DNA of 64,000 bases from Candidatus Komeilibacteria bacterium CG11_big_fil_rev_8_21_14_0_20_36_20. GTDB lineage: Bacteria; Patescibacteriota; Patescibacteriia; UBA1558; GWA2-36-10. The notes under the pieces were generated by a model, which was given only the letters and a program-made list of their open reading frames with translations, did not search any database and was not told the origin of the DNA. Both the position numbers and the translations under genes were made by a program. Position 1 is the first letter of the stretch; every line of letters begins with the position of its first letter. The stretch lies in NCBI GenBank assembly GCA_002787405.1, contig PCWQ01000007.1:102250-166249 (forward strand), written 5' to 3'. Below, one piece after another: positions 411 to 11,975 of the stretch.

Positions 411-845
411 TTAAATACCTTCATATAATTTAATTGTTTCCCCTTTTTTCAAGGTGACAATAGCTTTCTTCCTATTTTTTGTAGAACCGAGATAACGACC
501 AAAACGAACTCTCTCCCCTTCTTTGTTAATAATATTTACTGCCTGGGGGACAACACCATATAACTCTTCTATGGCCTTTTTGACTTCAACTTTATTGGCT
601 CGGGGAGAAACCTCAAAAACATACTTGTTTAGAGAAACCCCAATAGTGGCTTTTTCTGAAATAATCGGCTTTAATAAAACTCGGTATGCCTTAACGGTTT
701 TAACTGGTTTACTTGGCTGAACTACTGGAGGGAGGGATTGTTTTGTGTCCTTCCTTTTTTCTTCTTTTTTCGCCTTCAAAACAACGGGTACGGCTGACTG
801 ATCCTTCTTTTTTTCTTCTTTAATTTTTCGGCTAAAAATACCCAT
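411..845 (-). CDS. rplW: 50S ribosomal protein L23 with ~50-aa lysine-rich N-terminal extension
   Basis: The core [14 protein letters not shown]...VNIINKEGE matches L23 and sits between rplD and rplB. The N-terminus, [15 protein letters not shown]...KPVKTVK, is an extra basic tail. Confidence 0.85.
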
Positions 846-1486: not shown

Positions 1487-2263
1487 TTATTTAGTCTGCT
1501 CTTCTTTTTTATCTTTCTCTTCTTTATTTTCTTCTGATACTTTTTCTGTTTTCTCTACTGACTGCTTAGCATCCTTCTCATCCTCATCGGTATTTTTTAT
1601 TTCTTTTTTATCCTCCAACTTAGCTTCAGTATTAGCAGGATCAATAAACTGTAAATCACCATCAGTTATAATACTAACTAAAGTATTTCTAGCACCAGCC
1701 ACTGCCCCCTTGATATATAATAAATGATTTTTTTCATCTGCTTCAATCAATTCTAAATTACTCAAAGTGACTTTTTGTCCTCCCATACGACCAGCCATTC
1801 TAGTGCCTTTAAAAACTCTAGCTGCATCAGTAGCGCCGATTGAACCAGGCATCCTTAATTGATCTTTATGACCATGAGTAGCTGGCGATCCGTGAAAACC
1901 ATGTCTTCTAACCACACCTTGAAAACCTTTGCCTTTAGCTATAGCTGCTACTTTCAATTTATCACCTGGTTTAAAACTGGTAACATCAAAAATCTGACCA
2001 CGTTTTATATTATCAGTAGAAGTAACTCTAAATTCACGCACATATCTAAAATTACTTAATCCTTTCAAATGTCCCTGCAAAGATTTACTTAATTTACTTT
2101 TCTGACCAAAACCAATCTGCACGGCTTGATAGCCATCTTTTTTTCCTTTTACTTGAGTTACTGTACAAGGACCAGCTTTAACAACGGTCACTGGAACAAC
2201 TAATCCGTTTTCTAGAAACTTCTGGGTCATATTCAGTTTTACGCCTAAAATAAACTTGGCCAT
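1487..2263 (-). CDS. rplC: 50S ribosomal protein L3 with acidic/lysine-rich C-terminal extension
   Basis: L3 motifs: GKGFQGVVRRHGFHG and TRMAGRMGG. The C-terminal ~45 aa, KLEDKKEIKNTDEDEKDAKQ..., are low complexity. Confidence 0.9.
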   Translation of the reverse strand: MAKFILGVKLNMTQKFLENGLVVPVTVVKAGPCTVTQVKGKKDGYQAVQIGFGQKSKLSKSLQGHLKGLSNFRYVREFRVTSTDNIKRGQIFDVTSFKPGDKLKVAAIAKGKGFQGVVRRHGFHGSPATHGHKDQLRMPGSIGATDAARVFKGTRMAGRMGGQKVTLSNLELIEADEKNHLLYIKGAVAGARNTLVSIITDGDLQFIDPANTEAKLEDKKEIKNTDEDEKDAKQSVEKTEKVSEENKEEKDKKEEQTK

Positions 2264-2290
2264 ATATTAACTATCTACTATCAACTATTT

Positions 2291-2335
2291 AAAAATCGCA
2301 ATTTTGCTCTCAAAAATTTTAAGGACAAAATCGCG
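2291..2335 (-). promoter_or_regulatory. Terminator-like attenuator hairpin ~30 nt upstream of the rplC start codon
   Basis: On the minus strand a 10-bp stem (cgcgauuuug/caaaauugcg, one GU pair) with a 19-nt loop is followed by AUUUUUAAAU. It lies inside a 248-nt ORF-free spacer between rpsJ and rplC. Confidence 0.4.
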
Positions 2336-2511
2336 ACTACTAGCATACTAGTTCATTAATAGTTTAATTATGAATTATAATTTAGCAATCTTTTCCTTAA
2401 AATAGATTATCTACTTACACACTTCCTCGCTAAAGGGTTATATAAATAAATAAAATATTCTTATAATTTATTCCGCCAAAAGCAGCTTATCTGCTAGCTT
2501 CTAGCTGAAAT

Positions 2512-2835: not shown

Positions 2836-2880
2836 GGAGCTTGAAATCTAATTATTAATTTACTTAATTAATTTATATTT

Positions 2881-2907
2881 AACCCCGCCGCCCAAACGGG
2901 CAAGCGG
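2881..2907 (-). terminator. GC-rich hairpin downstream of tuf (weak U-tract)
   Basis: ccccgccgcccaaacgggcaagcgggg forms a nested stem CCCCGC/GCGGGG with an inner GCCC/GGGC stem, immediately after the tuf stop. Confidence 0.35.
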
Positions 2908-2916
2908 GGAAAATAT

Positions 2917-4104
2917 TTATTTAATAATCTTAGTGACTACACCAGCGCCGACTGTACGACCGCCTTCGCGAATAGCAAATCTTGATTTTTCTTCTAAAGC
3001 TACCGGCACAATCAATTTAATCTTTAGATTAACCGTATCGCCAGGCATGATCATCTCTGTTCCTTCTGGTAATTCAATTTCGCCAGTTACATCAGTGGTT
3101 CTAATATAAAACTGTGGTTTATAACCTTTAAAGAATGGAGTATGTCGTCCGCCTTCCTCTTTACTTAAAATATATACTTCTGCTTCAAATTCGGTGTGAG
3201 GAGTAATAGTACCCGGTTTGGCTAAAACCTGACCGCGTTCCACATCGTCTTTTTTGGTACCTCTTAATAAAAGACCAGCATTATCACCAGCACGACCTTC
3301 GTCTAATTGTTTATTAAACATTTCAATGCCAGTGACGACGGTCTTAGTGGTATCCTTCAAACCAACCATTTCCACTTCTTCATTTAATTTAACAATACCT
3401 CTTTCAATACGACCGGTAACTACTGTGCCTCGGCCTTCAATGGAAAAGATATCCTCGATTGGCATTAAGAATGGCTGTTCAGTATCACGTTTTGGTTCTG
3501 GAATATATTCATCTAATGCCTTAATTAATTCATCAATTGGTTTGGCGTCATCGCCGGTTGGATTTTCCAAAGCTTTTAAAGCCGATCCTCTGATAATTGG
3601 CACTTCATCTCCCGGAAATTCATATTTCTTTAATAAGTCTCTGATTTCCTCTTCCACTAAATCAACTAATTCAGGATCGTCTACCTGATCCATTTTATTT
3701 AAGAAAACAATAAGATAAGGAACGCCAACTTGACGAGCCAATAAAATATGTTCTCTGGTCTGTGGCATTGGACCATCAGCGGCTGAAACGACTAAAATAG
3801 CGCCATCCATCTGGGCAGCACCAGTAATCATATTTTTAACATAGTCAGCGTGACCCGGACAGTCTACATGAGCGTAATGTCTTTTGTCGCTCTCATATTC
3901 CACATGAGCGGTAGCAATAGTAATGCCGCGCTCTCTTTCTTCTGGAGCATTATCAATCTGATCAACACCTTTTTGTTGAGCAATTTTTCCTTCAGCTACT
4001 AATACCTTTAAGATAGCCGCCGTCAAAGTGGTTTTGCCATGATCAACATGACCAATGGTTCCAACATTGATGTGAGGTTTTTCTCTTTTAAAAACTTCTG
4101 CCAT
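2917..4104 (-). CDS. tuf: Elongation factor Tu
   Basis: EF-Tu motifs [18 protein letters not shown] and NKMD. An AAGGAG Shine-Dalgarno sits 9 nt upstream of the ATG at 4104 ([11 protein letters not shown]). The longer ORF starting at 4134 ([10 protein letters not shown]) is not supported. Confidence 0.95.
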
Positions 4105-4291
4105 TTTTATGTTTCTCCTTTGATAGCGTCCCAATAAACAGGACTTTGTAACCCAACTATCGTGGTTTAATTATTTTTTATTAATCTTATAAAACACAAA
4201 GGATTATAGCATGGATTTATAATTTTGACAAGTATTTGTTAAGCTACTTATCAAATTAATTATATTTTAACTAATATTAGCCAAAATATTA

Positions 4292-8700: not shown

Positions 8701-9129
8701 TTATTTACTAGCTTTCTTTTCTCTTTTAGTGCCATATAAAGAGCGCCCTTGTTTGCGACTAGATACACCTTGAGTGTCATAAACACCGCGCACAATATGA
8801 TAACGGACACCCGGGAGATCCTTTACTCTGCCTCCGCGAATCAAAACAATGCTATGTTCCTGCAAATTATGCCCCTCCCCTGGAATATAAGCCGTTACTT
8901 CCATACCATTAGAAAGACGCACTCTGGCAATTTTACGCAAAGCAGAGTTCGGTTTTTTAGGAGTAGCAGTAGTCACTTTTAAACAAACACCTCTTTTAAA
9001 AGGAGCTCCTTTCGGCAGGTCTCTCTTCCTTCTCCTCAAATTATTCAAAACCGTCTTTAAGGCAGGCGTACTGCTTTTAGCTTTTGGTTTTTTTCTTGCT
9101 TTTCTTAATAATTGGTTAACTGTTGGCAT
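8701..9129 (-). CDS. rpsL: 30S ribosomal protein S12
   Basis: S12 motifs: [13 protein letters not shown] and [10 protein letters not shown]. Confidence 0.95.
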
Positions 9130-9475
9130 ATGTTTACATATAGCCTATGGCTGATGGCTTATGGCAACTTATTTAATAAACTGCAAAGATATATCTAAAT
9201 TAATTATTGGCTATTAGCTATATGCTATTAGCCAACTAAGTCCTCAATAAAATAACATAAAAAAATACAACCGTCAACCTTAAACCAGTCGCTAACGCTC
9301 CAGTTCAGGGTTGAGCTATTCTTTTCATTTTAAAGAAATACCCTAGAACTTGCGTTCCAGGGTATTATTTACGTGATATAACATGGTTATAACCTTAAGC
9401 CGTTAAGGCTTTAGCGCTTTATGATTCCTCATGAGGATTATTCAGGTAAAATCAAAGGACTTTACAGTATTGTCT

Positions 9476-9503
9476 ACTATATACTATCTAAAAAATTTGT
9501 CAA
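9476..9503 (-). promoter_or_regulatory. Candidate str-operon promoter (long leader)
   Basis: On the minus strand: TTGACA, a 16-nt spacer, then TATAGT. The 9130-9475 leader contains several hairpins, e.g. 9334-9360. Confidence 0.3.
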
Positions 9504-9524
9504 GTCCGGCAGATAAACTTGGGT

Positions 9525-11268: not shown

Positions 11269-11381
11269 ACTTTACAAAATTATTTTTTTATGCTAATATT
11301 ATGCAATGTTATATAAAATCATTATAACTTAATTAAACAAAAAAGCAACTACCCCCTACAAAATAATTAATCAAGAAAGAT

Positions 11382-11570
11382 ATGGCTAGAATATGCGATC
11401 TATGCAGACGAGGAGCAATAACTGGCAACCAGCGCAGTCATTCCAAGGTGGCTAGTAAAAGAATGATGAGCATCAACTTGCAAACTAAAAAACTGAACGG
11501 CAAGAAAATACTTGTCTGTACTTCTTGTATCAAAACTATCAATAAACTAAAAAAGAACCGAACAATATAA
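11382..11570 (+). CDS. rpmB: 50S ribosomal protein L28
   Basis: MARICDLCRRGAITGNQRSHSKVASKRMMSINLQ matches the L28 family. Confidence 0.85.
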   Translation: MARICDLCRRGAITGNQRSHSKVASKRMMSINLQTKKLNGKKILVCTSCIKTINKLKKNRTI

Positions 11571-11578
11571 AAATCAAA

Positions 11579-11610
11579 AAATCATCTCAGAATTCAAAAG
11601 ATGATTTTTT
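11579..11610 (+). terminator. rpmB intrinsic terminator
   Basis: Stem AAATCATCT/AGATGATTT followed by TTTTTT. Confidence 0.7.
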
Positions 11611-11975
11611 ATTTGCTTAAAAAACAAAAAGACGTTTTTACCGTATGAAACTAATAAAACGCCTTTTTGCTAGCCATCTCTGTGTACCATTCATTTTTAA
11701 TTAATAATTAAGACGACCGATAGCCCTTCTATTCAGACCGAAGCTAACCCCTGTGAAACAGGTGGGATTCCGCAAATTAAAACCACGGTTTTAATTAATA
11801 TAGAATTCCCTATACTACAATTTTATAGAATTGCTTATTGGCCCGAAAATAAAGAACTACATTTGTATTATAGCATACTGCCAAAGACGCGCAAATTAAT
11901 AATAGCCCTTCTTAGACATCTCCCCCTAAATTAGGGAGCGAAAAACTCGGCATATGCCGGGTTAGAAGGGGTGTT

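Follow-up and report, generated by a model that had tools for sequence, protein, structure and literature searches.

The rpsJ-rplC locus

The window, by which the whole analysed stretch of 64,000 nt is meant, carries on its minus strand the genes tuf (2917-4134), rpsJ encoding S10/NusE (2512-2835), rplC encoding L3 (1487-2263), rplD encoding L4 (850-1485) and rplW encoding L23 (411-845), with rplB next. All of the five genes given with coordinates were recognised as open reading frames, rpsJ also by its translation, and on an identical metagenome locus Pfam matches were found for EF-Tu, Ribosomal_S10, L3 and L4. The genes rplC, rplD and rplW are tightly packed with gaps of 1-4 nt, and the spacer between rpsJ and rplC covers exactly positions 2264-2511. 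The original prediction had described it as 248 nt without a reading frame between two genes that are normally almost contiguous, and both statements hold, the latter for E. coli: the coordinates and the list of reading frames agree, no ORF of 30 or more amino acids was found in 2264-2511, and the corresponding gap in E. coli K-12 is 32 nt. The spacer has a G+C content of 27% and folds as a whole with -67.9 kcal/mol (z = -4.8 versus dinucleotide shuffles, a stability reached by 0 of 200).

The host of this 248-nt spacer RNA is a bacterium of the candidate phyla radiation (CPR; Patescibacteria). The best relatives of the window's L3 are 50-76% identical and come from metagenome-assembled genomes that are labelled as Parcubacteria, Paceibacterota, Nomurabacteria, Komeilibacteria and other Patescibacteria. 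At least 24 JGI metagenome contigs encode an S10 protein with exactly the same residues, samples with this population being 3300004210, 3300005237, 3300008094 and 3300003830. As the spacers of four metagenome loci among the matches listed, which have the same S10, are also 100% identical to that of the window, strain micro-variation is uninformative here. L3 ends in a Lys/Glu-rich tail of about 50 residues (1487-1640, minus strand), which is absent from some relatives that bear the same leader, and L23 begins with a Lys/Glu-rich extension of about 50 residues (700-845, minus strand).

A strong sigma-70-like promoter that matches at 11 of 12 positions (TTGTCA-17-TATAAT with an upstream TG; 4203-4231, minus strand) lies before tuf and is likely the start of a transcript that comprises tuf, rpsJ and the leader described below. 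SD-like motifs were found upstream of 5 of the 55 genes in the window, rpsJ and rplC being without one, and the organism seems to start translation largely without Shine-Dalgarno pairing.

Parts and alternative folds of the spacer RNA

In the clade of the window (type A), the spacer RNA consists in 5' to 3' direction of a variable hairpin after rpsJ, the hairpin P1, an antiterminator strand, the hairpin P2 and a terminator, all on the minus strand. The hairpin that directly follows the rpsJ stop codon (2470-2511) is present in the MFE fold and has no proper U tract, and relatives have a hairpin of other sequence at its position. A hairpin with a U-tract had been predicted just after rpsJ, of which the hairpin is found, but the U run is weak and internal only; it is possibly a 3' stabiliser or a weak terminator, which is uncertain. 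P1 (2399-2461), an irregular and long hairpin with about 25 bp, was recognised in MFE folds, by covariation and by the covariance model R1 (see below), and it is presumed to be a sensor or protein-binding domain. Its stems vary in sequence between lineages, and its apical part contains a near-invariant core (2420-2440; UAACCC...GGAAGUG) that was defined from columns across 38 leaders (alignments A3 and A4) and forms an asymmetric internal loop AC/AAG with closing C-G pairs, the apical loop being variable.

The antiterminator 5' strand (UUAAGGAAAAGAUUGCU, 2384-2400) abuts the base of P1 and pairs with positions 2320-2335; its sequence UUAAGGAAAAGAUUGC, directly 3' of P1, is a complement of the terminator 5' arm, and the duplex of 2384-2400 with 2320-2335 has a calculated energy of -15.1 kcal/mol (z = -2.7). 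The antiterminator helix encloses P2 (ACUAGUAUGCUAGU, 2339-2352), a small variable hairpin that was recognised in folds of truncated transcripts and at the position of which relatives have CUAG...CUAG hairpins. The terminator 5' arm (UCGCGAUUUUGUCCUUAAAA, 2317-2336) is common to terminator and antiterminator, and the 3' arm (UUUUGAGAGCAAAAUUGCGA, 2296-2315), which was assigned by pairing and by compensatory changes in relatives, is followed by a tract of five U (2291-2295) that ends 27 nt upstream of the rplC ATG. The terminator hairpin is A-U rich and has about 20 pairs with a dG of -17.9 kcal/mol before the UUUUU, and relatives likewise have conserved U tracts, of 4-7 U. A 10-bp stem with UUUUU about 30 nt before rplC had been proposed for this place, and while the element is real, its stem is larger. 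A stable hairpin with a U tract thus lies on the sense strand upstream of rplC, as is characteristic of attenuators that use an intrinsic terminator. The terminator 3' arm and the antiterminator strand UUAAGGAAAAGAUUGC are nearly identical in sequence, and for this reason the two compete for the 5' arm.

For an estimate of the folding order, each leader was cut at the end of the terminator 5' arm. In 29 of 30 leaders truncated in this way, the MFE structure has P1 and the antiterminator (8-16 pairs) enclosing P2, whereas the terminator is formed instead in all 30 of the full-length leaders. This order, together with the energies of -15.1 and -17.9 kcal/mol, suggests that the antiterminator is favoured kinetically and the terminator thermodynamically, which in these calculations is the balance that a regulated attenuator needs. 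An alternative pairing that sequesters one arm of the terminator, the other characteristic of attenuators, is thus seen in the folding order, and its conservation is evident from covariation (see below). As far as can be judged from sequence comparison and calculated folds, the RNA has two mutually exclusive conserved conformations, one of which is an intrinsic terminator just before rplC.

P1 coexists with the antiterminator in the MFE folds, so that these two are not mutually exclusive, and the P1 core is about 20 bp, i.e. about two helical turns, away from the junction. A toehold or anti-antiterminator coupling of the P1 base to the antiterminator was considered and rejected, as P1 is intact beside the antiterminator in these folds. 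A signal could pass from P1 to the switch by contact with the neighbouring AAGGA strand, by a tertiary contact being lost, or, as in E. coli, by acting on the polymerase while it is paused.

The sole reading frame in the spacer, a 21-codon ORF (MLVVAILSLKFLRAKLRFLNS; 2281-2346, minus strand), runs across the terminator and has its ATG in the loop of P2. This ATG was not found in the relatives, and the ORF is therefore probably fortuitous. An attenuator based on a leader peptide was rejected for the same reason, as the only candidate peptide has 21 amino acids and a start codon that is not conserved.

Conservation and covariation in Patescibacteria

A spacer of 140-652 nt (median 243) separates rpsJ and rplC in all 78 of the 78 Patescibacteria relatives that hold both genes. 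A hairpin directly before a U tract, scored at dG <= -10 kcal/mol, is present in 68 of 79 spacers as compared to 12% of 395 dinucleotide shuffles. The U tract of most type A leaders ends 15-40 nt before the rplC start, and the distance from the terminator to the ATG is 11-40 nt in most loci. In one relative (L071), rpsJ is not adjacent, and rplC there still has a promoter (TTGACA-17-TATACT), a leader and a hairpin with six U. As promoter, leader and terminator are kept with rplC in this case, the element belongs to rplC and not to the end of rpsJ.

The original prediction had named the comparison of the spacer structure among relatives as a check, and this comparison revealed that three helices are conserved with compensatory changes. 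In alignment A2, which comprises the antiterminator strand and the terminator of 28 leaders, the 17 scored pairs of the terminator helix are 96.8% paired and 8 of them have compensatory changes (0/500 column shuffles), as compared to 37-51% pairing when the partner was slid by 1-3 columns. For the distal 8 bp of the antiterminator, pairing amounts to 93.7% and 12 cells are compensatory (0/500 shuffles; slid control 41-49%). Alignment A3 was made with MAFFT from the sequences of 26 leaders with no structural information, and in this alignment the 23 pairs of P1 are 78% paired versus 37-50% in the slid control, with 74 double-change cells versus 35 +/- 5 in shuffles (0/500), whereby the sequences are kin, so that the shuffle numbers for all three helices overstate independence and cannot be read as probabilities. 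The shuffle results are in agreement with the slid controls and with how varied the pair types are.

A homologous antiterminator strand is present in 30 relatives, and the best partner of the 5' arm is always this AAGGA...AUCGC strand just 3' of P1. Four positions of the 5' arm (2, 3, 4 and 10) covary with their partners in both pairings; at position 3, for example, antiterminator strand, 5' arm and 3' arm read G/C/G in 17 leaders, whereas 8 leaders have A/U/A. G-U pairs are frequent in the terminator, with UG found 7-13 times per column (e.g. UA 18 and UG 9), and another column has GU 15, AU 6 and GC 6. As such G-U pairs would be C-A mismatches on the opposite strand, they point to a structure of the sense-strand RNA and speak against a DNA palindrome or operator. 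All this is conserved across relatives whose L3 is just 58-76% identical to that of the window.

The covariance model R1, which was built from P1 and the antiterminator strand (86 positions, 23 pairs), has a single match in the 64-kb window at 2382-2463 on the minus strand (59 bits). With E < 0.1 it finds 37 loci, twelve of which had not been used for building the model, and all of them are in rpsJ-rplC spacers. Its placement and its covariation mark the element as a structured RNA that immediately precedes r-protein genes and is read from their strand, as is usual for r-leaders. A metagenome scan with the pattern GATTTTGTCCTTAAAN{5,30}AAAAT gave only chance matches among the matches listed, and the 80 loci of these had no R1 match and no L3 or S10 gene nearby.

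For the window and 20 relatives, no Rfam 15 family reached its gathering threshold, and a search at E <= 10 gave matches at chance level only and nothing relevant. The families covered include the L10, L13, L19, L20 and L21 leaders, the r-leaders of Eckert and Weinberg, and 6S. With filters off, R1 had no match in three parts of the E. coli genome: the rrn operon, the S10 leader (within 3452200-3453800) and the S10 operon. In the searched literature, no r-leader or cis-regulatory RNA was found for Patescibacteria or the CPR, and the r-leader list of Eckert and Weinberg 2020 (PMC7247131) has none for this phylum. The element hence matches no catalogued RNA family, the S10 r-leader of Firmicutes and Clostridia being set apart by its position.

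More distant Patescibacteria have other conserved leaders at the same site, which were grouped into the types B (L038, L039, L042, L056, L067, L078), C (L044, L047, L063-L066, L074, L076, L080), D (L033, L051, L060, L061) and E (L048, L052, L054, L035, L040). They are distinct from each other, and all are found in rpsJ-rplC spacers and end in a hairpin with a U tract. By eye, a common theme of type A and types B-E can be recognised, which consists of a helix, an A-rich bulge, a short helix, a CC-hairpin-GG element and an AA bulge. A canonical promoter lies within the spacer upstream of the leader in L035, L040, L044, L063, L064, L066, L074, L076, L080 and L071, and in type C as well as in L035 and L040 it has the form TTGACA-17-TAnAAT. 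The spacer of L076 is 652 nt long and contains a G+C-rich insert of about 390 nt between the leader terminator and rplC (about 2021-1630 in L076, upstream of rplC), for which no Rfam match was found.

A probable conditional attenuator before rplC and its possible effectors

It is probable that the spacer is a cis-acting leader that serves as a conditional transcription attenuator of rplC-rplD-rplW-rplB and the genes beyond, with feedback by an r-protein as the inferred signal. The two parts of this interpretation differ in strength: the attenuator architecture can be regarded as highly probable, and an r-protein as effector is, by analogy to known leaders, somewhat better than an even guess. 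By comparative criteria the element is functional, and it represents a new family of a known regulatory type, found at an unusual site and in a phylum that is unexplored in this respect. The original prediction of a displaced attenuator analogous to that of E. coli is supported, and it had been made before the conserved covarying structure and the alternative antiterminator pairing were seen. As the antiterminator pairing is conserved, the hairpin is to be regarded as a switch, and most likely this RNA switch controls the downstream r-protein genes separately from tuf and rpsJ.

The following sequence of events can be envisaged. The transcript would probably start at the tuf promoter and run through rpsJ into the leader, where the long P1 hairpin would form first in the nascent RNA. 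The strand UUAAGGAAAAGAUUGC at the P1 base would then capture the terminator 5' arm as this arm emerges, and with the antiterminator formed, the polymerase would read through into rplC. If the antiterminator were blocked or displaced, the 5' arm would pair with the 3' arm, which nearly equals UUAAGGAAAAGAUUGC in sequence; the terminator, being more stable, would then form before the five U, and transcription would end 27 nt short of rplC. The element may in this way set the fraction of polymerases that pass from tuf-rpsJ into rplC and onward. The P1 core (UAACCC...GGAAGUG) is a putative site for an r-protein that is made downstream, candidates being L4 by precedent or L3 as the product of the first gene, and binding of such a protein when present in excess over free rRNA would favour termination. 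An autogenous feedback of this kind would leave tuf and rpsJ (NusE) unregulated by the P1 switch.

A mimicry of rRNA by the P1 core was considered in this context. The only near match is in 23S rRNA at 482-500 (AACCCCGGCGAGGGGAGUG), which was found by a regular expression and the hairpin of which is conserved in the Rfam LSU consensus, but shuffles yield 0.30 matches of this type per rRNA set (P about 0.26, with rRNA that was not the Patescibacteria's own), and the likeness, which is not significant, may serve as a lead. Type E leaders were compared with 23S positions 1000-1030 (UAAGGUCC...GGGAAAC), and this candidate was rejected, as according to Rfam these rRNA nucleotides are in long-range helices and form no local hairpin.

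The same switch may instead respond to an effector that is no r-protein, such as a small molecule or ion, a Nus-type factor, free 30S subunits or another RNA-binding protein, and this is rather unlikely. It would agree with the non-significant rRNA mimicry of the P1 core, with the gene for S10/NusE being directly upstream, and with the SD-like AAGGA strand. In a Nus variant, S10-NusB would act on a BoxA-like GUCCUUAAAA of the 5' arm. The 5' arm matches what we take to be the BoxA consensus at 8 of 11 positions, but this match is weak, and SD sequences are hardly used in this organism; the AAGGA strand as a sensor of 30S subunits, which was considered specifically, is weakened by the same finding that just 5 of 55 genes have SD-like motifs. 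Also, a core like that of P1, one small internal loop in an otherwise plain hairpin, is typical of protein sites and not of metabolite aptamers; a riboswitch would be an unusual one, with one hairpin as its sensor and about 12 invariant nucleotides confined to a single internal loop. In addition, R1 finds the element before r-protein genes only. Much less probable, though more far-reaching, is that read-through is licensed by S10/NusE (with NusB), bound either to GAUUUUGUCCUUAAAA, the BoxA-like and single-stranded 5' arm, or to the P1 core, or, in a broader form, that the leaders of types A-E are one phylum-wide system with a single non-canonical effector. If the former were true, a large block of r-protein genes would be gated by the Nus/antitermination machinery that drives rRNA transcription.

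Other readings dispense with the switch. The spacer may contain an independent small RNA, or P1 may be a processing or stability site of the RNase III type that splits the rpsJ and rplC messages, for which the P1 duplex of about 25 bp and the resemblance of the promoter-leader-terminator units of type C to sRNA genes could be quoted. This is very unlikely, since in most loci a terminator 11-40 nt ahead of its start codon would cut rplC off from any promoter, since no 6S or other Rfam match exists, and since plain processing needs neither an invariant internal loop nor an antiterminator. Slightly less probable still is that the tuf-rpsJ transcript ends at a constitutive terminator, with rplC being transcribed from a separate internal promoter and no regulation at all. 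An internal promoter had been part of the original prediction as an alternative, and true promoters do exist in this spacer in distant relatives. In the window, the number of promoter-like sites in the spacer equals the expectation from shuffles, the best match reaches 9 of 12 (TTGAGA-18-AATAGT, 2313-2284) and overlaps the terminator arm, and between the five U and the rplC ATG there is no room for a promoter, as they are 27 nt apart; this alternative is not supported for the window. The candidate -35 box is the terminator arm itself and changes together with its pairing partner, reading UUUAAAG in relatives, and the relatives with a promoter have it upstream of the leader with the terminator downstream of it. 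Moreover, the terminator hairpin is 216 nt past the rpsJ stop codon and not at the stop, and a constitutive terminator would give the conserved antiterminator no role. A chance structure, finally, could be suspected in A+T-rich filler with 27% G+C, as A-U rich sequence makes many hairpins, but it is refuted by the comparative data, i.e. the covariation in three helices and the conservation at 58-76% L3 identity, as well as being disfavoured by the z-score of -4.8, and it is practically out of consideration.

The attenuator preferred here has analogues in several known systems. In the E. coli S10 leader, L4 mediates attenuation and translational control, and the two systems would have in common a premature intrinsic termination before the L3-L4-L23-L2 genes and an upstream hairpin together with a terminator hairpin (PMC10931766). 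They differ in that the E. coli leader is upstream of rpsJ and the element of the window is downstream of it, which is why S10 is co-regulated in E. coli and excluded here. They differ also in mechanism, as termination in E. coli involves a NusA-dependent pause that is stabilised by L4, with no known antiterminator. The E. coli type of S10 leader is described as restricted to Gammaproteobacteria (PMC3616713). A homology to its hairpins HD/HE was rejected because of the different position and the lack of an R1 match, and the two leaders can be called analogous only. The mechanism looks more like the Bacillus-type scheme of terminator and antiterminator than like a NusA/L4 pause. In B. subtilis, the L10(L12)4 leader of rplJL and the L20 leader of infC exert r-protein feedback by a choice between antiterminator and terminator (PMC10931766), and the switch is preceded by a hairpin or internal-loop motif to which the protein binds, which is known there and inferred here. 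These leaders belong to other operons with other ligands and folds, and their families gave no Rfam match with the window's element; furthermore, the bound structure in B. subtilis is an anti-antiterminator that overlaps the antiterminator, whereas P1 coexists with the antiterminator.

The S10 r-leader of Firmicutes and Clostridia is, as its name implies, located upstream of rpsJ. It was named in Yao et al. 2007 (PMC1913097) and Eckert and Weinberg 2020; it, too, is structured and serves the S10 cluster, and its ligand is likewise unproven. The same position as here, directly upstream of rplC-rplD-rplW-rplB, is reported for an L4 r-leader candidate of the Archaeoglobi in PMC7247131; this is an archaeal motif, the ligand of which is also assigned by precedent only, and neither the window nor 20 relatives gave an Rfam match to it.

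The distinctive point of the element is its position inside the S10 cluster. The cluster would be functionally split by it, with tuf and rpsJ/NusE outside the control and the genes from L3 onward under it. This would be an archaeal-like division, as in archaea the S10 gene is with tuf and separate from the L3-led cluster. The synthesis of r-proteins is kept in balance with that of rRNA mainly by feedback through r-protein leaders, of which the known ones are narrowly distributed. CPR bacteria have tiny genomes and few recognisable regulators and are not in culture, and the element would be a first handle on the control of ribosome production in these bacteria. For annotation it provides an RNA family with 38 members so far, and further leader types occupy the same site in other Patescibacteria.

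Some other untranslated regions of the window are mentioned here as side observations. Positions 11269-11975 comprise 707 nt without an ORF of 100 or more amino acids, a tRNA or an Rfam match. Upstream of rpsL (8701-9129), in the region 9130-9524 on the minus strand, there is a strong promoter (TTGACA-16-TATAGT) at 9503-9476, and about 340 nt of hairpin-rich untranslated sequence lie between this promoter and rpsL-rpsG-fusA; without a match in Rfam, the region may be a second r-protein leader. In the spacer between tuf and rpsJ, a G+C-rich hairpin without a U tract (CCCCGCUUGCCCGUUUGGGCGGCGGGG; 2880-2908, minus strand) is found right after the tuf stop codon. Its pattern CCCGC..GCGGG occurs twice in the window as compared to 0.18 expected occurrences, and similar CCCGC-loop-GCGGG hairpins are present between the terminator and rplC in L004, L005, L011, L015 and L017.
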